Positions 8,500 to 63,590 of a stretch of DNA of 64,000 nt are shown in pieces (the stretch's first letter is position 1; each line of letters begins with the position of its first letter). The stretch is from Isurus oxyrinchus (lineage: Eukaryota). Where the stretch lies: assembly GCA_026770705.1 (NCBI GenBank), contig JANJGN010000001.1, forward strand, positions 213,218,001 to 213,282,000. The letters are read 5' to 3'. The notes beneath the pieces were generated by a model. It ran no database searches. It worked only from the letters and a program-made list of their open reading frames with translations, and was not told the DNA's origin. Position numbers and translations under genes: made by a program.

Positions 8500-11400
8500 A
8501 TTAACTCCCTTTCACTCAGTATTGATTAATACACAAACAACCTTTGCATCAACTCACATCTCCTCTTATGTTCATCATTCCTTTAAAATTATAAAGAAAA
8601 CAAAACAAACCTTTTGATTTAAAAGCATTTAGTGAGATTTGAAACAGCAGCCTTGTCCCAAATTAAATTTTAAAAAAAGTATCAGAAATGCATTTTTTAT
8701 ACACTGAGTAATTCTTTTGTCCTATGGAAGAACACAAATAGATTTCTGGAAGAGAAAAAAAAAAAGCATACAAATGAACAAACATCTGTTGACTGTCTCT
8801 CCTCTGGTCCAAACTTATGTACCCATCCTCATCCTTGGCAAATAAATAACAAAACAAAATCACCTCTCTCTTGATCATATCAACCAAGAGTTCTAGTTAT
8901 AAACATCCACACATCAGAAATTCTACCTTATAACTGAATTAATTCTGTTTGGGTATTTTCTTGATCTGGAAAATGTGTATTCTCATTATATCCAACTGTT
9001 GAAAGCCATTGTAATTGGCTGTAGTGTGATTTGAAGGACCCTATTAGTTTTGTAAGGGTTTTGATTCTTTGTTTATGCTAAGTCTTACTTTTGACTTTTT
9101 TTTAAATTGACACATCAGCCCATCCCAATCGCTGTGTGCCAACTTTTCCAGTGTAATCAATTCAACTGCGTTTGCTTTCACAGTTCAATATATACACAAC
9201 TGTTCCACAATGTCTAACAAATAACAGGCTCTCATGCATAAATAAAGTCTATTTTAAAAAAGAAAAAAATCTATTTTCTTAAATTAAAAAATATTACTCT
9301 CAATAATCACAATGCATCACCTTTGCTAAATTTATACAGCCTCATGCATAAAATTATAGCACTGGCAGTTGCTAATTTTTAACACTACATTTTTAACACA
9401 TAACACTTAGTCAATAAGTCTATGTAGGACAATGTGGAAATAAACGCATTTTAAACACATACATACACACACAAAGAAAAAAAACAACAGATTATTTCTT
9501 TAGAATATGAAAACTGTAAACTTTGGGCTCGTTCTGCAACTTCCCCAAATTCCATGAAACATTTACAATCCTTCCATAAGCGCACCTGTCACCTATTACA
9601 AAAATCACAACTTAAAACGTATAAAGCTTTTTTTTATATCATAGTCACAGTTACCAAAAAACGAGTGAATAATTTATTACATATGCTATAATAACATCAC
9701 CCTAGACACTATTATCTATGAGGTATATCTGAGAAAATTCGGTAAGGAATGCACGGTCTGCGTTGCCAACCTACTCAATCAGTTTTTTTTAAAGCTTTGG
9801 TATCTTAAAGAGAAAGAGAAGATAGAGATTGAGATAGAGAGAAAACTTTGGTATCTTTGTTTAGTTCTTTGCATGGTTGCATTGCAAAGCACCACAGTGT
9901 AGCGGCTCACCAGCAATAAAAAACTGGTGGCCTTTTCGAAGCTGAGGTATTCACAGGAATAAAAAAATGCACAGAGGTCTAGAAACTGGAAAGAAACACC
10001 GCTTTGGTTCAAGCAAGGCACTCGTCCCGTGGTTTATCACACTTTGCAACTAAAGCGTGCATCTAGATTTTAGTTTTTCTTTTGAGTACAGGTATTTGGT
10101 AATGGTGGTGACTGATTCAGGATGTGTATTTGTTTATTGTTTTTCTGTACGTTCATAAATTCAATATGATGTGGACATGTTGCAGCTAGCAAAGACCTAA
10201 AGTATCAGACAATCTAGGCACTGGTTTGGTTTGATATTATCTTAGTACATACAGTATAAGTTCAATTGAATGCAAATTAATCTTTCCAGCATGGGAGGGT
10301 CTCTTCTCTGCTGAATATCAGTAAAAATTATAACATTATGTAGCAGAATTTTTATTCTCCCTCCAGTGCTGCAAAAGTAATCTGATTAACTAAAGTTTGC
10401 AAGAGTTATACGAGTAGATTGAAAGAAATTTTAATACCTGAAAATCTTGTGTTGTTTGTCATGAAGTAAATTTGAATTACCTATTAGTATAATTGTAATT
10501 ATTGGTGCAGGAGGTTTTATATAAGTAGAGGGAGAATAGTGCTACTTAGAATAGCAAGCAAAGCACAAGTGTTTTAATTAAGCCAAAGTTCCTCTATAGA
10601 TTATAAAGAGCTGCTGGAAGATTCACTCTATGCTGTGGTATTGGGTTCAGTATAGAAGTTTTTTTATATTTATTTCAGGGTTTTTTCCCCTGCTGAAATT
10701 TGGGATTATTATCATGTTAATAATAAATCCTTAAAAGGATGTTGCACATGAATAGAGACAGGACACAGACAGTGCTAGATGAACAAAGAGAATCTGAGTG
10801 ACATCATAGCAGCTGAATTTGTCGCATTTACAAACCCACCTTGATACTATATGAGAATAATTACAGGCCCTAGTTTGAGTTAAGAATTATTACCTTTATG
10901 TGTTTCCTGGGTTTGTTTTGGAAGATTTACTCATTTTGATTTAGAAAGTACAGAATTCGGTAAAACAGCATTTCCATAGAGAGAAATATAAATTATTTTA
11001 CATAAATTCCAATCAAAACTGCTGCATACTTTGCATCTACATTTATAATAAACACAATACAGCAAAGTGCTGGTGACATTAGCTTTTTTTGAAAAAATAT
11101 TGACGGTAAGTACAAGAATTACTGTTTACTGATACATTGAATGGACATGTTATATTTGGTCTCTTGATGATGGATTCTAATGAGGAAATTATCTTTTTAC
11201 AGCACAGAAAAAACACACATTCAGAATGAGTACAAACCACCATTTAGATCTTTGGGGTATCTGAGTTGCAGCTGTATTTAAGAGACACTCTATACTTGAG
11301 CAGGAGCAAAACGCAGGCCGTGCAGAGAAAGAAATCTTTGGTATCTTTGGTATCATCGACGCGATTAAAATTACAAATGGAAAAATTCAGTGAGGTAGCC

Positions 11401-14400
11401 TCTTTGGTTCTCACTAGAAATAGAAAGAGCTTTTACACATAGTTCATACCTGGAAGCAGCGAGTTCAGGGTTTTTTTTTCTGTCTCTTGTCACTAACGCT
11501 AAAGACTTCTCCGCAATCGAAAGAAGCTATCTAAAGCCATTTGGACACAGGGCTAAACAATGGTGGAAAGATCATTAAAGTATTTTTTGTTGTGTATTCA
11601 CGTTCCCATCAGTACATGCTGTATGGTTCCATCTAAAATCATTGCTCATCCATGTTATTAATAATAAGACTGAAGGGATATCTTTCAGTGCTTATAGTGG
11701 GATAATTCTTTGGCATTGAAATTGAGAATAAAAGTTGCAGTGCTCAAAGGCGCTAAAATCTAAAAATCGATAATGAAAACATTTTGGGATATTGGCTCAG
11801 GTAGTTTTTGCACAAAAAGTATAATGTGTAACTATAACAGGATGCTTATTAATAGAATTTTGAAAATCTAAATCTTTTCTATCAATTTTACAGAATACAG
11901 AATTGGAGTTGTATTACATGTGAATCAATGCATGTGCAATTTTACTCCCAATGGTAATTTGCATTTTTTCTAATAAAATACAAAAAATGTTAAAAGAATT
12001 AACCTTTGCTACTTTATTTTTAAAAAAGCAGACAATATGATTAAAAGCCTTCTGAAGCACTGCACCTTTCATTTTAAATACGTTTGTAGTATTTGATAAA
12101 TAAGAGAAAAATCACCATTTAAATATATACTTCACAATAAATAGCAAGAATAATACAAATAATAATAAAGCTGATGAAGCTTTTTGGTTTCTAAACTACA
12201 GTCAAAAGCACTTTAAAAATTACTCACTTGTTTAGAAATCAACTTTTGTTAATTAAATCACTTAGACGGCCTATGGGTATTGTGACTAGCAATGAAAACA
12301 TTACTGTCAATTGTCTGAACTTGTTACCTCAATACGGCATATTTCTAATAGCTGAGTTGGTAAAAAAAACAATAATGGCCACACAGGGAAAGTACTGTCA
12401 TTCTCTCTGCGGGGTCAACCTTCAGTTTGCTGGTCCGATCAGTTTGGTTTCTTTGGATATAGCTTTGTTTAAGGATAAAAGCTTCCACATGCCTGGATAA
12501 AGCTACTGAACTACAGTATGCCAATACTGCACTGTCTTCTTGTTGCAAAATTATCGTAGACTCCTGATATTCTTCAAAGTTGAACTCGTCTTGGACGTGC
12601 GCATGGACTCCATGCACAAGACGCTGAGCTAAATGTCTATCAATGAATAAGAAACTCATAGGATATTTAGGTTAAAATACAATTGATGTATTATCTGTTG
12701 TAGTCATTTACTAAATTCATCAACAAACATAACCAGGGGGTTCTTTTGTGCTTAAGATGAAGTGTGAACTTTTTAAAATCTGAGGATCAATTGAATCTAA
12801 AGCTTTAAAATAAATAATTATCATGTAAACATTTCAAAGTAAAAATTATAAATATTAAACTAGATAAACAACACAAGTCAAATAATTTGGAATATATTAA
12901 TATTGTATGAAATGCATTAATTTACAAGAGATTAAATCATCAAAATTATAAATTAAAGCTATATTTCACTTAAATTATCCAAATTGATACTTGAGTAGAA
13001 CCATTAGCTAATGTTGAATACTTGCTAAATATATATGGCTGAGATTAGATGTCACGGTAAAGTTTAGTAACTAATGTAATGCAAAATTCAGTTTAAAAAA
13101 AAAACCCTCCCATATTTAATTACCTTTACTGAGATATGGGAATGGGTCACTATCTTTGGTAGAGGTGTTTAATCTTCACCTTTACATCTTGTGCTTGGAG
13201 TCATTTGGATCCATTGGTTGGTATCCTGTTCCATTGAAATTGCTAATTAGGAGGAACTTGTGAAAGCGAGTGGGTACTTCCCTCTCTCAATAAGACGAAC
13301 ATTGAAAGACAGGCCTATTGTGCGAACAGCACTCAACTGTAATGCATAAAAACTACAAACAGATCCATGTCTCTGTGAAGCTGACTTTGGTTGAAGCGGA
13401 AGAGGTTTTCTGTTGTTCTGTACAACGTTTCTGAAAAACTGCATAGGCACACGTTAAAGACAATATTCAACTTTAAGAGGCGGCGAGTGTCATTAAATGA
13501 AGCAGCAATGATCTGTGGCATTGCTCCCTTGTTGTTGCTATTTTTCTTGTTAACCCTTTCGTAACTCTGCTTCCCAAAACGACTAAGACAACCATTGAAA
13601 CACAGTGCGTACGTTGTTTCCTGACGTGCTTCTTTTGTTTAAAAGTTTGTTGCAGAACAATTAGGTGCAGAAAAAAGTTTCTTTGGTTTCGATTTAATAA
13701 TAAATAGAAAAGAAAAGTATCAAGTGTCTTCACGAGAGTCTTTAAAGCCTTTGGCTTGCCTTTGAACACATCAATGGTGTTCTTAAAGGGCCCGTTCAGT
13801 GGTGAATGTGCACATGTTGGAAGAAGGGGTAATGATGTCGAGTTTTAGGAAAAATAAAGCTATTTAATGTTTGTGCTTCCGCACTCACCATGGACAGCCC
13901 CCTTTACACGGGCTACTCAGTGCGTTTGCAGTAGTAAACCAGAGTCGGACAAAAATAGAATATAAGTATAGAATAGAATGGATGCATAGTAATCTACAGC
14001 TATAAAGACAAACAATATTTACTTTTCCTGCAGCAAACAGCTGCCTTCACAACCTAATGGCCCTGATATCTTCTGAAAACAAAATGAAAGCAGACCACAT
14101 GATTGGGTATACAAAATCTCAGGAATTTGATGATTAGAAGGAATGTGCTTGAAGATTGTGCTTGCATTCCCACCACTAACAGCTCCGCCCAATGGGGGAA
14201 TATAGCAATGAGGGCACATTTACCAGCATCATTCAAGATTCATGTTGTGTTGTGGGAATGGCGGACTGAAAGTCTCCGAAAATGACTTTGATATTTTGTG
14301 CTTGCATACTTACCACTAACAGCCCATTCTTAAACAGCCTGGTTAGTGATGAGATAGCATGATTGTACAAATGTTCTCCAATAATTCTATTGAGGCTCCT

Positions 14401-14837
14401 TTAAAAATATATTCAAAATGGGCATCACTTACCTTCAGTGTCTGTGCCAGTTTTATCACATCAAAAATCACTGTGTAACATTGCCAGAAACTGATAACTG
14501 AACCAACTCACAACCTTCTGATTATTTTATCACAGTTAAAACTCTTCAGGCAAAGCACTAGACATATTATTGCTCAGCAACATAGCTTGTTGTGCCGTGC
14601 CTGATGGCCTCTGAAAATTCACCAAATAGACTCTCAGCTTCGTTGTCAGTTTACAGCAAGGACTCAAATGATTTAAGGGGAAATCTTAAGTCAGACACAT
14701 TAAGAAATATGTGCCATCCCTTTCTTACAGAATGTGTTGATCAAGATTGTGCTTATGCACTCACCACTGAACAGCCTCTTCAAAAAGCAAAAAAAAAGGG
14801 TGTTGAGTTGTGCCCTGTTCAGGTGCACTGTCCTCAA
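8500..14837 (-). other. ONECUT2: Putative long ONECUT2 3'UTR (distal end uncertain)
   Basis: Directly follows the stop codon, has no recognisable transposon fragments, and has many miR-9/miR-218/let-7 seed matches on the mRNA strand. Mammalian ONECUT2 has a very long 3'UTR. Several AATAAA candidates exist, and the true end cannot be fixed from sequence. Confidence 0.6.
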
Positions 14838-15130
14838 TCATGCTTTGGTACAAGTGCTTGAGGTCGACGATGAAGCCCCTGGGCTCGACATGGCTTCGTC
14901 CTGCCATTTGTCCAAGCTTCGCCTCCGGGCGTTCATAAAGAAATTACTGACGGTGGTCAACTCCAGACCGAGCTGTTGCGAGATCGTGAGCTGCATCTCC
15001 TTGGAAGGGCGTTTGTTTTCCTTGAAAATGGCAAAAAGAGTTCGGCGTTGGAGGTCAGTGAAAACTAGCCGTGGCTTCTTTGGTGTATTGCTCTTCTCTT
15101 TGTTCTGTTCTTGTTCTTTGCGTTTACACG
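14838..15130 (-). CDS. ONECUT2: ONECUT2 coding exon 2 (homeodomain, C-terminus)
   Basis: Acceptor TTTTTTTTCCAG|CG. Translates (A)CKRKEQEQNKEKSNTPKKPRLVFTDLQRRTLFAIFKENKRPSKEMQLTISQQLGLELTTVSNFFMNARRRSLDKWQDEAMSSPGASSSTSSTCTKA*, with the Onecut F48/M50 homeodomain signature. 1108+293=1401 nt = 466 aa plus stop, in frame. Confidence 0.96.
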
Positions 15131-16474
15131 CTGGAAAAAAAAGAATAACATTGAGAATTTATAGAAATGGACTGACTTTATCCTAGTTTGTTTGTCAAAT
15201 TGTGAATCTTCTTTAAAATATCCCATTGATTTATCTGAGGTTTAGAATTTTTCAATGGGTTTTGGGAAGGCAAGTGGGTGGGGTGGGGGGGGGGGGGTGC
15301 GGGGGCATGGAAATCAACTAATGGCAATAAATGTGGAAATTACCAAGGCATTTATTTTGTTAACCAGTGTTCTAAACATTCGATTACAAAACACAAATGT
15401 AAAACCTAAGTACTGTAATAAATTTGTGTAATGATTAATACACAATCATTCCTTGTGTATTTTGTCTTAGTCCTTTATTTATTTTCTTCCCCTTCCCCCT
15501 TTAAAATTCTCAGTCATGCTTGAGGACATGTTCTAAAGATTTTGCGTGTCCTCTGATACCCTGACCATTGACTATTATTAATGTGTAAACATTAACACTG
15601 GCAGGCTTTTTGATGATTTGTTTACCAAAGTTCAATCCTCTTTTCCCCTGATGCCCAACATGCATGATTTCCAAGAATCACTAGATAGCTACTGAAATCA
15701 GGAAATATGGCTAGCTCCAACCCACTCCCTACCTGCCTCCCACACCTAACTAATTCTGGTGGATTACATTTTTCAGTCAGTGATGAGTCTTCAATGCTCA
15801 TTGCTCGAATGATGCTGCTCACAAAGATTTAGCAGTCTCCATGAATTTTCCCTTTCCTGACATGAGTTTGAACTGGGGCCAAGTCAAGGGAATTTCCAGG
15901 CAGCCAGCAACAGTGATGTCATCAAATAGGGTACTCAGCCAATCACAGACAGCAAACAAGACAGGTGTATTGATTATTCTTCACTTTTTAAAATCATTTT
16001 ACATAATGTGAAATAATGATTGGGACTTTCACTTGGGTTTAAGATAGAAGATAGACTATTGTAAACAAACTTCATTTTTAAAGATAAATTTGGATTTTTT
16101 ATCACAATGGATACAAATATAAAATTAGTTTTTTTTCAGGGCCAGAGAGGTTGACCAGGTCTAATTATGAATTTGATATATTGTTAAAACCAGTTACACA
16201 CATTCAACAAGGTGTCACCTGTTCAAGAGTTTTTATGGGGAGAAATGGCTTAAATGTAGAAGCTCTCATCGGTTCAGTGATGCCTAGTTGATTGCAATCT
16301 GCAGTTACTTCAATAGTATACCCTATTAAGAAACATAGATAAATGAAGAAGTTGCTGTCAGTGTAAGTGACAAGTGTGACTCCAGAAGCTGCTGCCAGCT
16401 TCAGAGGAGTAATGATGCCAAATGCTGACAACTTTACTGTCATCACTTCCTGTAAGATTCAGACCATTATTTTC

Positions 16475-16556: not shown

Positions 16557-17884
16557 CCATGAGTTAGTGGATCAAATCCCCTTACCCAACAATTTTTCAG
16601 ATGACTTTTCTCTGTGAACAAAAGTTTAATTGGCCTGCAGTCTGCCAGTCACTGACTGTATGCCAGAGTTACTAGGAAGTTTCCATATGTGGACAATGCT
16701 CTCTCCCATCTGCTGAAATTGCACATTGCTGTGTATGGGAAAACCATGTAGGAAACCTAGGAAAATGACAGGCGGGAAAAGGCCAGCTGGTCCACCAAGT
16801 CTCCTGGCGAGGCCTAATAGCTGGAGCATCCTAACTATGCACATCCTACCGCCCTCCAGCAATGTAGCATCCCGAGAGAGGAGAAAGAAAAACAGGGAGC
16901 TTCTTAGGCTGGATCTGGAGTCTGATCCGGATCAGCATCAGAGACTTTACAGCTGATCTTGGGTTTGGAATGGGTGAAGTAATTCGCCTTTTCTTTTTCT
17001 GCTGGGAGGGTTTGCAGAGAGTAAGGCTTATCTTCTGCGGTGGCGTCGTCCAATGACCCAAGGGCGCACATTGACAAGGTTTACGAGGACAGAATGAACG
17101 AGGATATTCCAGCATTGCTTAGCGCCTTCAGCAATGGTATGAAGAAAATAGTGGGAATCAAATCGCTTTACTTCGTTTTGAAGGGTCTTTGTGCATCTAT
17201 TCCAATTCACCTTAACGAAAATAAAACACAATACACAAGAGAGCAGACTATCTTATGAAGCGATGCACAGCCAAGATGCCATCACCACCGTCTTAACAAA
17301 TGCCATTTTACAGCATCCTGCGGAAAGACTATTTTCCAGGGACCGGCGCTCCTCTTGGACCTGTCCGCGGTGCTGAACCGACCTCTGTAATTGGATGCAA
17401 TTGTTCGTTTTATCGCTTCCTTTTTCTTAAACTGTTAATATTACATATATCTTCCGTGCTGTATGCTAAATACAATATCTGCGGAGCTTCCAGGAAACGT
17501 AATTACTATTGATTTTCAATGTTAAAATGTAACATTTTATTATCATGTGTCAAGAGTCTATGGTTGCCAGGAGATGGCAGCGTTGTACACACAATTCTCA
17601 GTGTCAGTGCTGCATCCAGCTGCAGCAGTACTGTGCAAGTGAAACTGATCGCAGGCACACTGTAGAATAACTACAAAACATTATTCTACATTAATGATTG
17701 ACAAACATAGTGAATAATCAACCCAAGTTCGAAGGGCCGCATGCTATCTTATAGGCTTTACTAATAAAGCACGAAACTGGGAGGGCATTAAACACACAAA
17801 CACAGAGCAGGATTTGAATTCCTAACCACCCATGAATAATACAGATGAAAATCATCGTCAAGGCTGCGTGGCCTCTATTAGCAT

Positions 17885-24500: not shown

Positions 24501-27500
24501 CAATGTCAAGGATAGAACTGAAGTCTACATGAGGAGGCGCGCTATCTTAAATCACCTCGATGCAAAGATTGTGATGTTAACGTAATGTGATTAAGGGTTT
24601 GACTCCACCTCTATACTTCTGAACTCCACTGAACTTTTTTTTAAGTAGAAGTATTTCTTTAGGAATATATTTTAATCATCTCTCCTCGCGCATGAACAGG
24701 GCCAGGACACAATCTATGTAAGTCAAGCTGTGCAGCCCTGTTGGACCAGAGTTAAGAAACTGACACAATACCGGGACCATCTTAGTTGTTTTCTCTGATT
24801 GTGTTACATGTCCCTGTGATAAGGAAAGATCCCAGGAGAACAATAAATATCGATATGTAATTATGCTATTAAAATTTATATATAATGCATAGCCCAAATG
24901 TATAACGTTTGACATCGCTCCACTCTGCTTAAAGTGCCGAGCATTTCCTTAAGTAACATCAAAGGCTGCAGCAAGAAAAATCTTTGTAAAAAGAGAAATC
25001 TGCTCTGCATCTGAACAGATATGTTTGCAAATTAAGCCTTAGCTGTATGATTCGAAAATGTAAGTAATGTTCTAAAACGTGGTCCCTATGTACATGTTTT
25101 TAAATGTTTTTTGTGGATTTCCGAAGCATATACAAAACAATTACTGGCATTTCATGGCAATTTAATATATATCGGTATAGAAGGAGATGGTTTTAAAGGT
25201 CATAAAGAACTTCAAACAATTATAAATGAACACAGCGCCCGTTCAGCGGTGGGAAGCAGCAGCTTAGTTCAGGGAATCTACCTTTGTGTTGCCAACGAAA
25301 TATGCAAGCTATACATATTTCGAACAAGGTTATTTTAAACAGATGCAAATATGACAAACATGAAACAATGGATTATATTTTCCAAACTTGGGGTTACAGA
25401 TATGGCAACTATAAATAGAATCTAGAAAAGCTAAAATAACCGACAGGGAATCTGTGACGGTCAAGTACTATACGGTTTGTATTAAATGGGTTGCTAAAAT
25501 AAATACTATTCAAGTCAAAATAATGCACTTTTCTTAAATTTCGAACCTGACAGTCAAGTAATCAGAAAGACCACTCAAGCCTTCGCTGAGATTTCTGCAC
25601 CATTGTTAAATGATATTGATATTCAACAGCATTTGGAAACTATCTGTCTTCAGAATTACAGGGTGATGAGAGGACAGCCTGACCCATCCCCTACTGGGGC
25701 ATAATCTCTTTTTACATTGCTGTTAGTTCCTAATGGCACATATTTCGGAATCCCAGAAGTGTCTAATTAATGCCGAAATGCAAAAAAATTTAAACTGACT
25801 GCATCAGAGACATACTGAAAGCTGCATTTAATCAAGGTGTTGGAATGCAATCTGCATCGCGCCGAAGAGCGTTTAACCAAACGCCCTGCCAGCGAGCTAG
25901 CCATATACCAGCTGTCCCCCTGAATTGCAATTTGCTGTGCTAATTGGGTCCCTGTCACTTAACACGGATCCTCTGACATGCATACTAAGTTTTCCACCTA
26001 GATAAGGTTTTATTTTAAAATGTTTGTATATTAATGTCAGACGGAAAGCCAGTAAATAGTCTTCTTGGCTGGGTTGGTTTGCCTGGATTATTGATTCTAA
26101 CTTTAATTAACTTAGGTTAAAGCCCAAAACTGTAGCTGAGGTCACGTGTCATTATCATTCTCGACTCTTGATAATCTCAATTTAGCCTTGCAAAAGAAAG
26201 AAATCATCAGGTAGAATGATTCAAGGACTTTTTGCTTTTAATAAAAACCAATTTTCTGTGTTATTAGTGTGTTGCATGCTAACAATCTTGCTTTAAGAAT
26301 GTTTAAGTGAGATCCTTTAAATCGCTAACTACCCACATCAGCGAAGTGCACAGTAACACGGTGGTCCTACACCTTTGGTCCTAATACAAAACAACACAAA
26401 AAAAATCGATACTAAAATATAGTACTACAGTTAAAAAAAACACTTTAGCTATCGTTGTCATTGGCTGTGCAAACGAAATGTCTTTAAAATGGGAGCGAGG
26501 AGGGAGTTAAAACTATCAGGAGACAAAGGGAATATAATGACAATGCCAGGAAGACCACGGCAGCTTTACTGGAACAACGCCGGATCAGGTTCCAAATCAA
26601 TGTCTAACCGGGTCCTCAGGTTTGTGTTATTGTTGCCAGCATTAATGCCCTTTTAATCTTCTAAAGATTATCCTCATCGATCCACGTCCATAGACACAGA
26701 TTTTTTTTATATAGTGACATAACCACATTATTGAAATTCTGTGATAAAAATAAATACCACGGTTCCATTTCCTTCCCTCCATCTCCCCCTTCCACCCCCA
26801 CCCCCACCCCCTCCCCCATATATCTTCTTTTGCCCTGAGTGCTCCCAGGAATCCTCTTACATTAGGAAGATGTTACTTTCTCACACAAGGGGCTGCCAGA
26901 GGCAAACATCAGAAGCGGGAGAGTTTCAATTATTAATTTGCCAATTGCAACACCAACAACGAAGTAAAGCCATGGGCTTAACAGAAACACGCTGGTGGCG
27001 GTGTTGCTGCGAATTTATTGTGTTTTTTTTCGGATGGTATTCGGCGTTAAGACTCCCTTGCATATCCTTACTTCAGAAACAACCCCATTTTTTTTTTTGT
27101 TTATCATTCTCCCCCAGTAGGCGTTCTAAGTATAAATCATTTATGAAGCCGTCGCCAGAGAGAAAGATACTGGTTGACAAGGCTATCAGCTCCAGCGGTG
27201 AATGAGTGCCCAGATTTTTGCCTGGTTAAAACCAAGGTGACGTTGCAGCTAGCAACCGGTCATGCAGAGATTTTCATTAATAATTCATATCTGCGGCTTC
27301 TGGGCTGCTTTTCAAAGCACTGTCAGTAAGCATTTTATGTCTTCAGATAAAATTTTAAATAAGAGAACCCGGCTACTGCACTTTTTTTAAATATACATCT
27401 TTTAAATGTTTCAAAAATTAGCAACATCGTTCAGAGGAGACCTCCACGTAAAACTCAAACTATATTCGCCTCAAATGGCTGGGTAAAATGCTGTTGTCCC

Positions 27501-30265: not shown

Positions 30266-31373
30266 CTGCAAGCCTTAAGGCTGACATTCTCTGGAACTCA
30301 GGTTCTTGCAGCCATTTCCACATCCGCCTGAAGGTCTCCCGTCCCGATTTAAGTTTACTCCAAGGTTTGGGGTTCCTTAAAAGGTCAGAGAGGGTACCCT
30401 GTGAGCGGCACAGCACCCTCTGAGCGAAGATGGCCTGCGGTATGCTGTAGCGCTTGAGTTCCGCCGTGATTCTTTGTGCTACTTCTTTGGTATTAATTTC
30501 TTCCAGCTGAGCCGAGCTGTTCGCCTGCGAGCCCGAGGAGGAGGGAGGCCGATCCCGGCTGGAAGCCAGCACGGGCCCGTGAGATTGGTGGTGACTTGAG
30601 TGACCGTGGTGGTGGTGGTGATGCATGCCGTTGAGATGTGGCATCATGCCCGCCGATGGGGCTCCAAGCCCCCGGGACAGGTGCTGCTCGCCCCTGGCCA
30701 GCATGGCCGTGTGAGCTTCGAAGTTTGGGCTCAGCATCTTGTCGTGGCCGTTGGAGCCATAGCCCTGGAGACCCTGGTGACTGTTGTGGATGGAAGCCAG
30801 GCCGTTTCCCAGGGGGTTGCTGGACAGAGGGGAGAGGTTTTGAGTCATCCCGGACATGTCCTTGTGGTACGGGCTGTAGAGATTGTTCATGGCGGCGGGC
30901 AAGCCCCTCTCATCCCGCATCAGGGTGAAGCTCCCACTCACGTTGCCTGCGAGACGCTGGTGGTGGTGATGGTGATGGTGGTGGTGATGGTGGTGAGGGT
31001 GGTGGAACTTATCCGACACGGTGGAGATGGGAGGCAGGGGCTGGAGTGGGGTCAGGGTGGTGTAGGTGCTGCTCATGCCCATTCCAGGTGGAGACTCGCA
31101 GGCCATGCTCATGGCCGGGTGGAGAGGGACAGAGAGCTCCGGACGGTAATCCCCAGTCCCATCCAGGATCGAAGCCATGCTGGAGACCATTGCAGATCTG
31201 CTTGTCAGTTCCCGGTGAGCTGCTGAGACGGCCTGCCGCTGGTGACTGTTCATCAGATCGCCCGTGGATTGCTCATGGCTTATTCCACCATGCAGATTCC
31301 CAATGCTGTCCATTGTAATCTCCGGGTTCATGGTATATACTTCTTTGGCTATACATCTATACGCGTTGTTCAT
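30266..31373 (-). CDS. ONECUT2: ONECUT2 coding exon 1 (N-terminus, TP box, poly-His tracts, CUT domain)
   Basis: ORF 30249..31373 encodes MNNAYRC..MNPEITM, YTTLTPLQPLPPISTVSDKFHH, poly-His and the CUT domain EEINTKEVAQRITAELKRYSIPQAIFAQRVLCRSQGTLSDLLRNPKPWSKLKSGRETFRRMWKWLQEPEFQRMSALRLA. Donor GCAG|GTAAGT ends the exon at 30266 (1108 nt, phase 1). The N-terminal extension and ST8SIA3 synteny favour ONECUT2 over ONECUT1/3. Confidence 0.96.
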
Positions 31374-43939: not shown

Positions 43940-44225
43940 TTAGGAGGCACAATGTGAAAGAGTCAGTTTAGTCAAGCCCTCATTGTGTAGTTTGAACAAC
44001 AGCTTGAATTCTGCTGGAAGCTGATGGGACTCTTGCCATTTGGTAGTGAATTTTGTCCCCTTTTTGTCATAGTAGTGATATGGCAATTCTTTTCCTGTGT
44101 TGGGATCCCAAGCGAAAGGCCAAAATCCGTACAGATGAATCTCTTCGCAAATGGCAGAAGCCAATGTATACATCAGGATGCCTGTACTTAGCCGCTTTGG
44201 CGACAGTTGTTTGGTTTTCCAATAC
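43940..44225 (-). CDS. ST8SIA3: ST8SIA3 coding exon 4 (sialylmotifs S, III, VS)
   Basis: Acceptor TTGAACAG|G. YWKTKQLSPKRLSTGILMYTLASAICEEIHLYGFWPF..YHYYD..HQLPAEF..LSHCAS*. Total 179+123+558+286=1146 nt = 381 aa plus stop. Confidence 0.96.
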
Positions 44226-44679
44226 CTGTTCAACGGTAAAGCAATAAAACATTTCATAAAATAATTTTTCAATAAATAAAAAAAATAATCTGCCGTGGAT
44301 TTATTTTTCATGAAGAACATTTCTCGTTTTCTGAACCGTTTCTGTTTTTGTTCAGTTTATCTTCTACTCATTCTCTGTATGCCTCTCTATTGCTTTCTCT
44401 TCGTCTATCTCGGTGTCTACTATTTTTTACCGCTTTGCCTCTGTGTGAGTTTCTCCTAGTCTGCCTCCTGTCTTCTACATTCTTACATTCTCAGTATGCC
44501 TTCTGTAAGGGGTTCTCTACACGAATCATTTCTCTCTTTCTGGTACTCTCTATCTGGTACTCACAAAATTCCTTATCGCCTGGAGATAGATTGGAATTTC
44601 GAACCTTTGATAATATTCTCTCTTTCGCGCGCTCTCTCTGGGCGTATGCCATCTTGGTTTCATGTGATACATGTGATGA

Positions 44680-45215
44680 CATCAAGTAATTAGGAAAGCT
44701 AATAGAATGTTATAATTTATTGCGAGGGGAATTGAATACAAAAGTAGGGAGGTTATGCTTCAGTAATATAGAGCACCAATGAGACCACATCTGGTGTACT
44801 GTGTACATTACTGGTCTCCTTATTTAAGGAGAGATGTAAATAAATTGAAAGTAGTTCAGAGGTTTACCAGACTAATCCCTGGAATGGGTGGGTTGTCTTA
44901 TGAGGAAAGGTTGGACAGGCTAGGCTTGTATCTACTGGAGTTTAGAAGAGTAAGAGGTGACTTAATTGAAACATACAAGATGCTGAGGGATCTTGACAGG
45001 ATGGATGTGGAGAGGAGGTTTCCTCTTGTGGGAGAATCTAGAACTGGGAGCTCATTGTTTAGAAATAAGAGGTCGCCCATTTAAAACGAGTCCTTGGCAT
45101 TCTCTTCCTGGAAAAAGGCGGTGGAAACAGAGTCAGGTTACTATCAGATCAGCCGTGATCTTATTGAATGGCTGAGCAGGCTTGAGGGGCCAAATGACCC
45201 ATCCTTGTTCACATG
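44680..45215 (+). mobile_element. CR1 LINE 3' fragment in ST8SIA3 intron 3
   Basis: ORF 44779..45084 RPHLVYCVHYWSPYLRRD..LSYEERLDRLGLYLLEFRRVRGDLIETYKML is the CR1 ORF2 C-terminus. An internally deleted 3'UTR follows. Confidence 0.9.
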
Positions 45216-45994
45216 TAACAGGTTTGATGCGGCCATGGTTTGGGGAGGAGTTGAAAATCAGAGTGTGAACCTGGGCTCAGGACTAGGGTTACAGACTGAG
45301 GTGGGGCGGGGGGGGGGGGGGGGGGGGTGGTGGTGGTGGGAGAGAGGACGCCCTAGGTAAATATATCATTGCATAGACAATCAACATATTATTCTGAATA
45401 CAACATTACACATGATTTTACAAATTTCCATCAGGTGAATGATTTGACTGTCCTACCATTGTTAGATAAATACTTAATAATTAAATGATCCAATATTCAG
45501 AATTGAAACTCTCTGTGAGAGAATGGGGAGGCACTGGTGCCCTCTGGACTGTCGGTGTCTTGTGACCGGGAAACAAAACAGAATTTCCCAGGTGACGGAG
45601 CTTGAGATGGAGGATGGTCGGTGAGTCCGGGGGAGGTAAAATGTCAGGACGTCATAAGATGCTCAGGGTATTTGGGCACAAGATCTGGGTGGGGAGAATG
45701 TTATAGGTAGTCCAAGATAGAGGCTAGAAAAAAGGTTAGAAAGGTGATGGGCAGGGCCCAGGAATCAGGCCTCGGAGCCGTTCTGTACAGGCTCTGACAA
45801 CCAATGGCGTGGAGAGAGGATGGATCTGTGATCGAGGTCTATTGGAACATGTAAGCAATTGGCAGGTAAAATTGCCTTTTTATGTGCACGTTTGTGATTA
45901 TTTCCAGCTTTTTATTTTTTTTAATGGTGTCTACTATGATATAAATGTCAGTTTTCGGGATAAACAGTGGGGCGAACAAGGAGTTACCATGACA

Positions 45995-46217
45995 AAAATA
46001 AAAAATACCTGAAAAAACTCAGCAGGTCTGGCAGCATCTGCGGAGAGGAATACAGTTAACGTTTCGAGTCCGTATGATTCTTCAACAGAACATACGGACT
46101 CGAAACGTTAACTGTGCTCCTCTCCGCAGATGCTGCCAGACCTGCTGAGTTTTTCCAGGTATTTTTATTTTTGTTTTGGATTTCTAGTATCGGAAGTTTT
46201 TTGCTTTTATCTTAGAG
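45995..46217. mobile_element. Palindromic Penelope-like short element with target-site duplication
   Basis: Inverted arms 45992-46076 and 46091-46174, flanked by TACCATGACA at 45985-45994 and 46218-46227. Contains a hammerhead-like GACTCGAAACGTTAACTG. Confidence 0.75.
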
Positions 46218-46540
46218 TACCATGACAGTTTTATTAATGGACTTTTGGTCGATCTGGGATGGGAGGGGACTTTGGAAGTAAGGGTTTGAAGAATTGTTCG
46301 GAGCATGCGAAGGTAACCAATCAATTTGATTGAAGAAAGTACAGAAGCTGAGCCAATGAGGAACAAGACAGTCGGCAAACAAAAACAAAACAGCAGGTTA
46401 AACTGAGAAACAGTCACACAACCATTTGTGTTATCATACAGATACAATTGAAGACTATAACTGGGTTAACTAGCATGGACTATCATAGGAATACTTATAG
46501 AAGTGACGTGTAAAAGCATCCTTGAGCCTCACATACTTAC

Positions 46541-47098
46541 TTGTTGATATGTTGCATTATGTTCCCAGGCCAAGCCAACTGAACCTTCAGTTGCGCCCTA
46601 TACTCTATAAAAAAATCTACCAACGTTCTTGTCACCGGAGCGGAAGTGTGGAAGAAAAAAGCAGGGATCCAAAGAATGGCTCCATCGAGCTTTTTAAGAT
46701 TCAGGAAAAACTTATTTCGATCTTGGATTGTTAATAGATTGTTGTAGTACTTTTCGAGGATGCTTGGGTTGAAGGTCGTGAGGTTCGTCTTTTTGCCAAC
46801 ATCTTTTTCAAAAGATTCAGTTGGCGCAAAATTGCAGCGGAACACGAAATCGGATTTATCAATGTCAGCTCCACAATGGCTTCCGATGAGGATTCCACTG
46901 TTCCCGACCACCGCACATGTGTTGTAGTGCATCTTTAATATAGGGGGCACGTCGGGGAGTAATGATCGAAAACTATTGCTGACAGAAAAAACGTACTTGT
47001 GGTTAGAATAGTCATAGTGCAGCAATTGTCCAACTCGCACGTTTTTCTTAACCAAGGTGAAATTTTTATAAATGTCAACATAGCGACTGATGTCCTTC
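46541..47098 (-). CDS. ST8SIA3: ST8SIA3 coding exon 3 (sialylmotif L)
   Basis: Acceptor TTTTGTTTTAG|G. Contains CAVVGNSGILIGSHCGADIDKSDFVFRCNFAP. Donor AA|GTAAGT, 558 nt. Confidence 0.96.
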
Positions 47099-47409
47099 CT
47101 AAAACAAAAACAAGAGAGGTACAAAACGAGTTAGTTCAGTTCATTCTCGGCAATGAATTTGAATTCAGAACACACACTTCTAGGAGTGCAGCGAAAGTTT
47201 TTCTCAGTAGGTTTAAACTATTGAGAAATAAAACAAATCAAAAAGGGCCATTGAGAAGGAATTATTAAAAAGTTTCTTTTGAGAAGTTGTAACTTTGAAA
47301 TATGCCTATTACTGATAGTACAATGAAACATCCCATTCACACTTGTTGGTCTTCATTTCACTTATCTCTCATAGTGATACAACTTTAGTTCTACATAACG
47401 TTTATCTAT

Positions 47410-53791: not shown

Positions 53792-54317
53792 TATTGCTGA
53801 AAAAAGAGACATGTCTAAGCTTTTTGTCTTGCACTCATCAGGACACTTGCAAGAATAAGGGGGAAAACGACAAGTTATACTGTGAGTGGAGAGTGCTGAC
53901 TGGTTGGAAAGTGGTGTTGCCATGGAGAAAGCATCATTGATGGTGACTGACAGTTAACTGCCAAGCATTGTTTGAATTTTAAATCTGGAAGCTTGGCCCT
54001 AATTGGTCAAGGCATTGCCCTGAGGAGTGAGTCAGTGAATGGCTGCCACTTATTTTGTTTAGCTGAAACAGGTGCAAAAGTATGTACATGTTCTTTCTGT
54101 CTACAAAGAACAGAGCCCCGTGCATTCAAACAATGCTTGGCAGTTAACTGTCAGTCACCATGAGTGGTGCTTTCTCCATGGCAATACCACTTGCCAACTA
54201 ATCAACACTCTCCACATACAGTATAAATTGTTGCTTTTTCCCTTAAATTGGTATTCTTGTGAGTGTCCTGATGAGTGCAAGACAAAAAGCTTAGACATGT
54301 CTCTTTTTTCAGCAATA
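53792..54317. mobile_element. ~525-bp palindromic element with a hammerhead-like motif in each arm
   Basis: Arms 53792-53976 and 54125-54317 are reverse complements around a ~150-bp spacer. Each arm has TGTC-CTGATGA-GTGCAAGAC-AAAAAGCTTA-GACA. Confidence 0.85.
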
Positions 54318-55614: not shown

Positions 55615-58545
55615 ACCATAACTGCTCTGTATCCTAACTCCTTCCATCAGCCTTGATTCCATAGCCCCACTACTCTTGACTAGCAAAAATCTATCAATCT
55701 AAGATTTAAAATGATTAATTCATCTAGCATCCACTGTTTTTTGTTGAGGACAGTTTCATAGTTCTACCACCTTTTGCATAAAGAAATATTTCTGAACTTC
55801 TCTCCTGAATGGCCTGGCTCTGATTTTCAGGTTAAGGCATCTGCCACCAAGGGGAAAATGGCTGAAGTTTTCCATCCCCACTGGCATTGGGTGTCATGGC
55901 GGGCGTGAACGGACAGTATGGTGAGAAAGCCAAAAATCAGTTTCATGCGGTTGTGAAACCAGTTTGCGATTGTCCGCTCCACCCGTCAATGGTGGGCCGC
56001 ATTTCCTGCCGCTGAATAAATCTGCATCTTATCATAAGCTCTGCTTGCCAGAATTCAGCCCCCCACGTCAAATTTGCTGCCCACGTCACCAGGAAAACAC
56101 ACTGGCCTGGAACACGTCTTGGCAAGTGTGATGTGCTGAAGTCGGAATTTACCATTAGGGCATCGTGGACATTCGAGGAGCAGAAGGTGCTGCAGCCCGA
56201 GGGAGTATGGTGGTGGGTGGTGGCGGTGGGTGGGTGGGGGGTAGGATGTAATGGGGAGAATGCGGCAACTGAGGAGGTAGGTGTAAGGGTAGAGGATGGT
56301 TTAAGGGAAGGAGTTGGGAGGGGAGAAAGGAGTCCAGAGAGAAAAAGGAGTCCAGAAGTGGGAAGGAGTAAGGGTGGAGGAGGAAGTAAGGGTGGCAATG
56401 TCCAGCTGAACGTGTAAGGGAGGGACCTGTGGAGGTATTGACTGTCTCCTGGGGAGTGAACTGAGGGTGGGTGTGTTAGGAGGGAATCGTGAGTATGAGA
56501 GAGGGCAGAGTGAGCCGGTAGGGTGGGAGGATGAGGGTGTGGTGGTTGTGATAGAAGAGACAGTGAGGGTGGTTGGTGGGGATTCGGAGGCAGACCCTGG
56601 GGTGGGAAGGAGGAGGTCGGGGAGACCAAAGTAGATGGGGGTGAAATTCCCGGGAAGATAGAGAACGTGCATGTTCACCTCGACATCCTGGAAAGAAAGG
56701 GGTTCTGGTTGGTAGGTGACGGTGGGGAGGTGGAAAGTGATGCCAGGGGGTCAACAGTGATGGGGGAAAAGACATGGGTGACTGGGGGAGGGGAAAGGAC
56801 AGGGGGACCTCAAAACAAACCTTACAACGATCCTGCTTCTGAAATCGAAAGTGACAGGAGCCTCATATTGGGCAGGAACAGGTGCTGCATGGGAGTGCGA
56901 TCAGTGGGTGGGTGGAGATACAGGTCAGCTCAGATAGACAACTGAAGGAGAACCCCAGCAGGCAGCATTGAAAATGCTCAGGACATTGAAGTGAATGTGA
57001 TGCAGAAAGTCTCCGCGTGAGTGGGAAAATGTTTGCACGAAGTTCTGAAAGGCCCTGCCACTCACACACTTCTCTCTCCAAAATCACTCGTGGGCCAGCT
57101 GCACGCAGCTGAACTGCTAGTGGGGGAGGACTAGTGAAGCCTGTAAATTAAGCTGAAAGACACCATTACACATTACTCAGTGAAAGTGAATACATTTTTA
57201 GATTATAAAGTGACCACTTGTGATCAGAAATTCTTAACTTTTCCAGGCCTACCTTCCAGGTAGGATGGGTGGAGGCAGCTTGTGCAATGGTTGACCCTGT
57301 TGCCTCTGATGACTTTGGCGTGGGTCCTCTGGGGTGCCGAGGCCTTAAGGGCCCCAACTTGCTTTGGCTGTCCTGTGGGCCAGCTGCTCCCTCTGCAGTG
57401 ACAGAGGACGAGGCTGAGGGAGTTACAGGCAAAGGGGACTCAGAGGTAGAGGACAATCTCTGAGATTCCTGAGTGGATGACCCAGTGGTGTCCAGCTACT
57501 GATCCTCCTCCTTTCGAGTGCCCGAAAGTCCCAGCCTGACTCCTCAAGGGGAAGGAGCACCTGGAGGGAGGTCGAGGTGCCCCGTTTCTCTCTCGCATTG
57601 CAGTGGCTGGGCAAATCAGAGACTGCCGCACTAGCGACCTGGCGTGTTTCCCAGGAATTAATTATTAATGAGGTGTGATGCGCTGAGAATGTGACAATAT
57701 GGCTTAAAAAGCCGCCATTGCGGCCAAAGAGTAAAACGTCCTTTTTCCTGCCGGCAAATCTGGGACGATTCCGCCCAAAGTCTGTACCAATTCCTTTCAA
57801 AATCCAAAAGCTTCAATCTAATCATCCTTTAGCCAAGGAATACAAGCCTAAAATTAATGTAATCTCTTCTCATAATCTAACCAATGGAGCCCTGGTAATA
57901 TCCTGGTGAATTTGCAATGCATTCCTTCCAATGTCAATATATTGTTTCTAAGGTGTAGTGCCTGAATGCTACACTGTACTACATATAAGGTTTAACCAGG
58001 AATTTGCATAGCTCTAGCAAAACTTCTTCAGCTTTATATTATAGTCACCTAATTATAAAAGCTAACATTCTATTAGCCTTTTTGATTATTTTTTTGCACC
58101 TGACTACTATATTTTAGTGATCTGTACACGTGCAGCCCATAATCTATTTGGACTGACTAATGAGACATTGATAGATTAAGTGAGTGGATAAAATTGGCAG
58201 ATGAATTTTGATGCAAGTAGGTATGAAGTCATCCATTTTGGACCAAAAATGGATAGATTCAAGTTTTTTCAAATCATGAAAAACTAGGAACAATCTATCC
58301 ATTTTTGGTCCAAAATGGATGACTTCATACCTACTTGCATCAAAATTCATCTGCCAGTTTTATCCACTCACTTAATCTATCAATGTCTCATTATCATTTT
58401 ATGCTTCTGCCTACACTACTTGCCATGCCACCAATCTTTGTGTCATCAACAAACTGGATATGACTCTCTATTGCATTATCTAAGTTTAATAACATCGTGA
58501 ATCACTGAGGCCTCAGAATAGAGGAATACCACAAGTCACTTCCTT
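55615..58545 (-). mobile_element. Old CR1 LINE fragment, interrupted by the 55860-57776 insertion and by an inverted duplication at 58159-58392
   Basis: CR1 3' sequence at 55615-55858 resumes at ~57780. ORF 58144..58350 reads MNFDASRYEVIHFG (CR1 QMxFNxxKCxVxHFG motif). Confidence 0.65.
55860..57776. mobile_element. Putative non-autonomous PIF/Harbinger-like DNA transposon derivative
   Basis: Degenerate terminal inverted repeats (GGCTGAAGTTTTCCA / TGGGACGATTCCGCCC), GC-rich subterminal regions, a G/purine-rich interior, and a minus-strand relic SLQVLL plus a Ser/Pro-rich stretch reminiscent of Myb/SANT-like partner ORFs. It splits a CR1. Confidence 0.5.
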
Positions 58546-62539: not shown

Positions 62540-63590
62540 TGTGAGGAAGTACTTTTTTTACACAGCAACCTGCAACTTGTTGCCTCTGAGGTTGGAGGAA
62601 GTGGAGATGATAAATGCTTTTAGAAGGAAATTGGATGGGAACTTGAAGTAAATAAGACTTGCAGGAGGGAGACAGAAAGCAGGAAACTGCAGGCTAGTTA
62701 GCATTACATCTGTCATAGAATTCATTAATAAGGAATTTATAGCAGGATATTTAGAAAATCATAATGGGATCAGGCAGAGTCAGCATGGTCTTGTGAAAGG
62801 GAAATCATGTTTAATTAATTTATTAGAGTTTTTCAAGGAAGTAACAAGAAGGGTGGATAAAGGGGGGCCTGTAGATGTAGAGTACTTTGATTTCCAAAAA
62901 GCATTTGATAAGGTGCCGCTCAAAAGTTACCTCACAAGATAAGAGAACATGGTGTTAGATAAATCATTGGTTAGCTAGCAGGAAGCAGAGAGTAGGGAAA
63001 ATGTTTTTTTTTGGGTTGACAAGCTATAACTCGCAGAATGCCACAGGTATAAGTGCCAGAGCCTCAACTATTTACAATCTATATAAATGATTTGGATGAA
63101 GATACCAAATCTATGGTAGCTAAATTTGCTGATGACAACATAGGTAAGAAGGTAAGTTGTCAAGAGAAGTTAGAGAGTCTGTAAAGGGATATAGACAGGT
63201 TAAATGAATAGGCAAAAATTTGGTAGATATAGTGTATAAGGTGGGAAAATGTGAACTTGTCATGGAAAGGGATTGCAGAACTCGGTAGTACAGAGGGATC
63301 TGGGTGTCCTGGTACATGAATCGCAACAGGTGAGTATGTAGGTACAGCAAGTGATTAGGAAGGCAAATGGAATATTTCTATCTATTGCAAGGGGAATGGA
63401 ATAGTTTTACTGCAGCTGTACAGGGCATTGTTGAGACCACATCTGGGATACTGTGTACAGGTTTGGCCTCCTTATTTGAAAAAAAGATATAATTGCATTC
63501 GAAGTGGTACAGAGAAGGTTCACTCGACTCATTCCTGGGATGAAGGGCTTATCTATGAAGAAAGATTGAACAGGTTGGGCCTACGCCCAC
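62540..63590 (+). mobile_element. Degenerate CR1 LINE RT fragments
   Basis: QHGLVKGKSCL, DFQKAFDKV, YINDLD, KFADDN and RPHLGYCVQVW relics. Confidence 0.85.

Follow-up and report, generated by a model that had tools for sequence, protein, structure and literature searches.

Control of Onecut mRNAs by the microRNAs (miRNAs) miR-218 and miR-9 has been described, and a review sentence names OneCut2 as regulated by miR-218, citing Simion 2010 (PMID 19913497) (PMC7961372). ONECUT2 is a developmental and prostate-cancer regulator with a very long 3' untranslated region (UTR), which has been characterized as conserved and structured and whose structure has been proposed to shield it from the RNA-induced silencing complex (PMC10356556). 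The available main text of that paper is without miR-218, the motor-neuron targets of miR-218 listed in the available part of another study (PMC5415563) do not include Onecut2, and the accessible portions of the miR-218/Onecut literature (PMC7961372, PMC10356556) describe neither identity between sites beyond the seed match nor a helix beside a miR-218 site. Here we report on a 64,000-nucleotide (nt) stretch of DNA from Isurus oxyrinchus (contig JANJGN010000001.1, positions 213,218,001 to 213,282,000; the whole stretch is called the window below), whose minus strand carries a cartilaginous-fish ONECUT2 gene. The proximal 3'UTR of this gene holds four look-alike modules, each made of a miR-218 site and a shared non-seed core, and we hold with moderate confidence that they form a cluster of canonical miR-218 sites whose non-seed letters double as strands of RNA helices. 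The locus has in common with the published system the gene, the miRNA, the long UTR and the many repeated sites for neural miRNAs.

Other described systems resemble parts of this arrangement. Like 3'-supplementary miRNA sites (PMC8940178, PMC10899785), the modules have an 8mer, a small positive offset and 4-6 contiguous 3' pairs; they differ in centring on miRNA nt 15-19, in a mismatch at nt 14, in their fourfold recurrence and in having their 3' letters in predicted helices. According to the available text of PMC10899785, 3'-supplementary sites comprise 3-5 bp, and 12 of 13 validated triggers of target-directed miRNA degradation (TDMD) have at least 6 contiguous bp. The TDMD triggers in SSR1 and TRIM9 (PMC8653786) share with the modules the miRNA itself, the combination of seed and 3' complementarity and the structured surroundings, but their contiguous pairing with the miRNA 3' end covers 8-9 nt, whereas that of the modules covers 4-6 nt and does not extend to this end. 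STAU1-bound duplexes within 3'UTRs, which belong to a known class of long-range duplexes associated with slow decay, likewise span hundreds of nt and compact the 3'UTR; as far as the available text goes they are AU-rich and symmetrical (PMC10164587), whereas the module-1 core in ONECUT2 is about half G-C and its predicted helix abuts the miRNA seed match. In the docking/selector pairings of Dscam1, as in ONECUT2, one arm is complementary to several similar upstream sequences; the Dscam1 pairings act in introns on exon choice, whereas in ONECUT2 the pairing lies in the 3'UTR and has one dominant partner.

The modules and the segments predicted to take part in the long-range pairing are located as follows.

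14747..14775, minus strand: module 1, with its miR-218 8mer at 14747-14754; its non-seed core provides the 5' strand for the predicted long-range helix
14776..14786, minus strand: 5' extension of module 1, continuing the predicted long-range helix (inverted repeat, folding)
14296..14323, minus strand: module 2, miR-218 8mer plus core; a local hairpin is predicted with the core as its 3' strand (p 0.92; z -2.47)
14156..14183, minus strand: module 3, miR-218 8mer plus core, without GURAGU; best predicted miR-218 duplex, -19.9 kcal/mol
13871..13898, minus strand: module 4, miR-218 8mer plus core; contiguous 3' pairing over 6 nt (nt 15-20); ranks second among the partners of the distal arm
13780..13814, minus strand: distal arm, reverse complement of the module core, closing ~950 nt that hold all four module 8mers (inverted repeat, folding)

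The modules are 28-29 nt long, and all four copies lie in the proximal ONECUT2 3'UTR, where they span 63-967 nt beyond the stop codon, with their 8mers 84-967 nt beyond the stop at 14838; the 3'UTR was taken to run from this stop on the transcribed strand. An earlier note on this DNA had reported the four copies with their letters, and the copies are confirmed, as is a likeness outside the seed match far above chance. Aligned pairwise over their 21 non-seed nt, the copies have a summed score of 85. Random UTR quartets score 51 +/- 4; 0 of 20000 attain 85, and 3 of 20000 do so when the quartets are drawn from the module-bearing proximal UTR. The non-seed core pattern has exactly four matches in the 64 kb, which are the modules (0.57 expected), and a weight matrix of the non-seed letters scores them at 25.5-27.1, with at most 15.7 in the rest of the window. 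The dispersal of the copies in otherwise unrelated sequence was also noted correctly, as their flanks reveal no homology (0 of 12 flank comparisons with p<0.13).

Outside the modules, and leaving aside a poly-histidine tract, the core matrix scores highest on a reverse-complement copy at 13811, in the distal arm, which the earlier note had overlooked along with a 7mer-m8 at 14144-14150 and two 8mers without a module at 13189 and 12746. The arm and module 1, ~950 nt apart, offer 12 contiguous Watson-Crick pairs, or 15 with one G-U pair, plus pairing in the flanks; they form the longest inverted repeat in 8500-15150 and the fifth of 10 in the window, after four long-foldback arms. Within 1-31500 the arm is the best partner of module 1 (-36.0; runner-up -30.4), and the arm/module 1 duplex, at -42.4, is far from the shuffles (-24.3 +/- 2.4; reached by 0 of 200). 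When the module is not preselected, the same pair emerges as the best stem of the proximal UTR, a result that 0 of 300 shuffles reach. The folding model gives it a pair probability of 0.99 and retains the helix when 2.1 or 2.4 kb are folded; the ensemble gains 24.9 kcal/mol in stability from the arm, and the 1000 nt that the helix encloses have a folding z score of -2.5 (20 shuffles). The human ONECUT2 UTR seems to have counterparts of both module 1 and the arm whose complementarity is preserved, whereas GURAGU and GCUGU do not seem to be retained there; this adds only slightly to the likelihood of the helix. Two arm-like intronic segments on the minus strand, 25221-25270 and 27171-27210, are the next-best partners of module 1 after the arm (~-30 kcal/mol) and may be chance matches. 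ONECUT2 is absent from five supplement files of a catalogue of conserved long-range pairings (PMC8052449), which may not contain the complete list, and neither this helix nor the repeated module is described among the literature matches listed, although supplements, image-only alignments and subscription papers may hold such descriptions.

With the mature miR-218 sequence taken from the supplement of PMC8653786, all four modules match nt 2-8 perfectly and have an A opposite nt 1, which makes them canonical 8mers. The 3' complementarity claimed in the earlier note is also present: nt 15-18 are paired at offset +2 in 4/4 modules and nt 15-20 in module 4 (the 13871 copy), nt 12-13 are paired in all four, and nt 14 is mismatched. 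This is ordinary 3'-supplementary pairing. Its predicted energies are -5.8, -5.8, -7.8 and -8.6 kcal/mol, which places modules 1 and 2 in about the top 5% and modules 3 and 4 in the top 1% of random UTR 20-mers; if the modules share one ancestor, this amounts to a single event at about the 5% level and is thus no more than modest evidence of selection. The UTR contains six miR-218 8mers, four of them in modules, and across the window there are 9 on the transcript strand against 2 on the opposite strand. The sites outside the modules are the following.

14144..14150, minus strand: additional miR-218 7mer-m8, beginning 13 nt after the start of the module-3 8mer
13189..13196, minus strand: fifth miR-218 8mer, without module; lies within a 16-nt inverted repeat whose other arm is 12606-12621
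12746..12753, minus strand: sixth miR-218 8mer, without module

The 13-nt spacing between the 7mer-m8 and the module-3 8mer is within the usual range of cooperative binding. The segment 13187-13202, which includes the fifth 8mer, has a 94% complementary 16-nt partner at 12606-12621, 565 nt downstream, and the two pair in the 2.4-kb fold; this partner would be a cis mimic hiding the fifth site. Nine matches of the miR-9 type were also observed in the UTR at 9801-13687 on the minus strand, with a tandem pair at 11351 and 11342.

Local pairing was predicted around the modules as well, with the following partners and one further motif.

14793..14812, minus strand: alternative local partner for module 1, weak and no better than shuffles (z -0.65)
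14338..14356, minus strand: local partner of module 2; 14327-14352 matches the arm segment 13780-13805 at 20/26 nt
14243..14260, minus strand: local partner of module 3, 9 contiguous Watson-Crick pairs
13910..13924, minus strand: local partner of module 4, two 6-bp helices (z -2.07)
13863..13868, minus strand: AUUAAA hexamer, 2 nt after the module-4 8mer, putative poly(A) signal

The local partner strands of modules 2-4 all lie upstream of them, and that of module 3 fits exactly the letters that break GURAGU, with 9 Watson-Crick pairs found in 0 of 205 distal windows. When the four putative hairpin units are aligned, the modules align and the partner strands do not; a hairpin unit common to all four copies was dropped as a candidate because of its weak statistics (Fisher 0.02; z -0.65 to -2.47). 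The earlier note had further described GUGC-tetraloop-GCAC hairpins in two copies that would partly hide the seed match. Both exist in the sequence, and in folds they are formed partially, with a pair probability of 0.58 for module 1 and presence in 1 of 2 local folds for module 4. The module-4 seed is the least accessible of the modules in the folding model because an AU-rich helix, predicted between 13847-13874 and 14008-14029 (12 bp + 7 bp, p 0.96), covers part of it and the AUUAAA. In the same model, the extra cost of opening the 3' region beyond the seed amounts to 6.4-20.9 kcal/mol across the four modules and exceeds the gain from 3' pairing (5.8-8.6 kcal/mol) in modules 1-3, but not in module 4.

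The most likely working mode is seed-led miR-218 repression at several sites, with structure keeping the seeds open and limiting 3' pairing; overall, this would be known miRNA regulation combined with a candidate long-range structural gate. The four 8mers and the 7mer-m8, all within 0.9 kb, would recruit AGO-miR-218 and repress the mRNA in a mostly additive manner, as expected from the published miR-218 control of Onecut genes. The modules may descend from one ancestral site via old, short local duplications, in which case their identical 3' register, U1-like letters and shared GCUGU need no separate function each. By folding, the distal arm is predicted to pair with module 1 up to the edge of its seed match, closing a 950-nt domain with all four sites, and this helix would melt a small hairpin over the module-1 seed and mask the module-1 3'-supplementary region. 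When the arm is blocked in the model, the cost of opening the module-1 seed rises from 2.2 to 5.4 kcal/mol and that of opening the seed together with the 3' region falls from 23.1 to 14.6 kcal/mol. Local hairpins may act likewise on modules 2-4. The net outcome would be seed-led repression with seeds held open and 3' pairing limited, so that no miRNA decay would be expected. The GCUGU, which the earlier note had left unexplained beyond the miRNA footprint, is as invariant across the modules as the miRNA-paired letters, though the flanks are unalignable, and no second miRNA or protein motif is known to fit all four copies. The GCUGU of module 1 lies inside the long-range helix in folds, which need not explain all four copies; shared descent plus pairing would explain the invariance only partly.

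A more specific proposal is advanced tentatively, namely that a vertebrate-conserved helix acts as a clamp on the initial kilobase of the 3'UTR of ONECUT2 and ends exactly at a miR-218 seed match, holding this seed open and withholding 3' pairing. The first and last sites would be brought within a path of ~60 nt, so that AGO cooperation is possible, and the arm may swap among the four modules as a docking/selector switch on miRNA sites. Several observations weigh against these interpretations. The stem test without preselection is passed by a single point (54 observed, at most 53 in shuffles), and among 49 other segments of the window 6 have a stem that is as good or better; the three strongest coincide with long foldbacks and one with a C/G tract. 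The differences of modules 2-4 from module 1 preserve pairing with the arm no better than chance (p 0.22, 0.23 and 0.12), and blocking the arm in the model leaves modules 2-4, whose seeds cost 2.1-4.6 kcal/mol to open, unchanged. The local hairpins are weak (p 0.06-0.16 each, 0.02 when combined by Fisher's method), their z values of -0.65 to -2.47 were obtained with hand-picked ends, and two nearby hairpins outside the modules score -2.1 and -2.5. The flanks are not homologous, so the duplication is deduced from the module cores alone. Finally, kilobase-range pairs from nearest-neighbour folding often fail in cells.

The simplest competing explanation is multi-site miR-218 targeting with 3'-supplementary pairing, in which the shared letters are relics of duplication, the arm is an inverted copy or a chance match, and structure is irrelevant. 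It agrees with the weak statistics of the local hairpins, with the ranks of the 3' energies given above and with the common register, counted for this purpose as pairing of nt 12-13 and 15-19 at +2 in all four modules, an offset preferred by let-7a for 4-bp 3' pairing according to the available text of PMC8940178. We nevertheless consider it rather unlikely as a full account, as it leaves unexplained both the GC-rich 12-15 bp complement just beyond the last module, which 0/200 and 0/300 shuffles reproduce, and the invariance of GCUGU despite unalignable flanks. Alternatively, all four modules might have been selected for complementarity to a single arm that pairs with any of them by turns, as in Dscam1; such a switch, if real, would account for GCUGU in every copy and would create alternative folds differing in miR-218 sensitivity. 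When the arm was used as a query against 2869 UTR windows, its top four non-overlapping matches were indeed the four modules (-39.8, -31.4, -28.4 and -25.8; next -23.8), and module 4 pairs well with the outer part of the arm (z -1.85). This ranking is, however, trivially expected from the similarity of the modules, the three comparisons of the substitution test cited above are not significant, module 1, ahead by more than 8 kcal/mol, occupies the arm with a pair probability of 0.99, and modules 2-4 have local partners of their own, all of which makes a selected switch improbable.

The remaining alternatives assign the non-seed letters to other machineries. The earlier note had pointed to G/GURAGU, the U1 consensus, in three of the four modules, where it does occur, and to U1-controlled 3' end choice. 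One further match is located outside them.

14427..14433, minus strand: strong match to the 5' splice-site consensus, in none of the modules

U1 bound to these 5' splice-site-like motifs would suppress a proximal poly(A) site and keep the UTR long, or the motifs would be cryptic donors that lie more than 55 nt beyond the stop and, when used, trigger nonsense-mediated decay, with the helix gating the motifs. Four of the 10 transcript-strand GGTRAGT matches of the window fall within 13889-14765 (877 nt), including the strong fourth match at 14433, the AUUAAA follows the module-4 8mer closely, and the letters opposite miR-218 nt 14 in all four copies and nt 11 in three agree with the U1 consensus and not with the miRNA. 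Five of the seven motif letters, however, pair with miR-218: G, G, U, A and G are the complements of nt 17, 16, 15, 13 and 12, which leaves two free letters, and three of the matches are mutual copies. Module 3 drops the motif, keeps miRNA pairing via a G-U pair and has the best miR-218 duplex, the module-1 motif would be inaccessible inside the predicted helix, and ONECUT2 is mentioned in none of the U1 and alternative polyadenylation literature matches listed. A U1 role is weakly supported at best, and we give it little likelihood. The motif is also a trap, as any site pairing miR-218 nt 12-17 resembles a 5' splice site. The suggestion that the sites jointly degrade miR-218 as a cluster of TDMD triggers fared worse. 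In its favour, the 6 contiguous 3' pairs of module 4 equal the minimum for 12/13 validated triggers in the available text of PMC10899785, and overexpressed SSR1 and TRIM9 triggers can degrade miR-218, with flanking structure of importance there (PMC8653786). On the other hand, modules 1-3 have 4 contiguous Watson-Crick 3' pairs (5 with G-U), so that at least 6 are found in 1/4 modules only, and the 3' energies of -5.8 to -8.6 fall short of -9.3 (SSR1) and -11.1 (TRIM9) from the same program. In mouse at E18.5 (12 tissues, which do not include spinal cord), the column ratios for miR-218-5p are flat at 0.75-1.18 and miR-7a-5p rises ~3- to 15-fold (PMC10620050), the columns being read, judged from the miR-7a values, as control followed by Zswim8 knockout; the supplement has miR-218 in its expression sheet only and not in the sensitive list. 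The candidate table of PMC8653786 does not list ONECUT2, which has 0 occurrences in the 11 of 14 supplement files searched. In the available text of TDMDfinder (PMC8887481), the two pairs of human ONECUT2 involve other miRNAs (first 16 of 28 onecut places), and ONECUT2 is not among the human rows in the first 16 of 49 miR-218-5p places; of the two ONECUT2 chimeras, out of nine, in the available part of PMC4674787, neither is with miR-218. TDMD by these sites is therefore unlikely, and as the explanation of the modules it is the least probable of all those weighed. The reading preferred here remains canonical miR-218 sites with non-seed letters that double as helix strands.

The gene assignment made in the earlier note is supported by homologue names and by tree placement. 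The minus-strand gene has two exons, the first coding for a CUT domain and the second for a homeodomain; the top homologues in a protein search carry the name ONECUT2, and in a tree of 20 rows the window protein pairs with elephant shark ONECUT2 (97/93) within the ONECUT2 clade.

30266..31373, minus strand: ONECUT2 first coding exon, CUT domain (translation, homologues, tree)
14838..15130, minus strand: ONECUT2 last coding exon, homeodomain and stop codon (translation, homologues, tree)

Upstream of ONECUT2 on the same strand lies a sialyltransferase gene, with minus-strand exons of a glycosyltransferase family 29 gene at 43940-47130, which is probably ST8SIA3, given its synteny with ONECUT2. 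Three long foldbacks, probably derived from transposons, occur at 45995-46172, 53792-54317 and 58158-58393, with arms of 66-122 nt that are 88-99% complementary; the foldback at 46 kb, within the sialyltransferase gene, folds at z -22, and the stretch folded at 58150 took in one arm only. Open reading frames at 44767-45084 and 62652-62942 have the look of LINE reverse-transcriptase fragments. Other origins of the module were considered and dropped: an interspersed repeat, with no further copy within the 64 kb; a REST/RE1 element, as none of the modules is within 3 mismatches of the consensus (both half-sites, 2-nt spacing); and a segmental duplication evident from flank homology, given the flank comparisons above. 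The only 0-mismatch match in the window to the RE1 consensus is in the ONECUT2 intron (17361-17376, minus strand). A tandem repeat finder reported no array in the module region, and an Rfam scan gave 0 matches at the gathering score and, by E-value, four chance-level matches (E 1.7-9.2) in 12400-14900.

The full-length ONECUT2 UTR has been reported to resist miRNA repression, whereas its fragments are reported not to (PMC10356556, available text). Reporters built on short fragments call for caution, as they may remove one arm of a helix such as that predicted here. A kilobase-range helix beside a miRNA seed match would provide a concrete, mutable structure on which the idea of UTR shielding can be tested.

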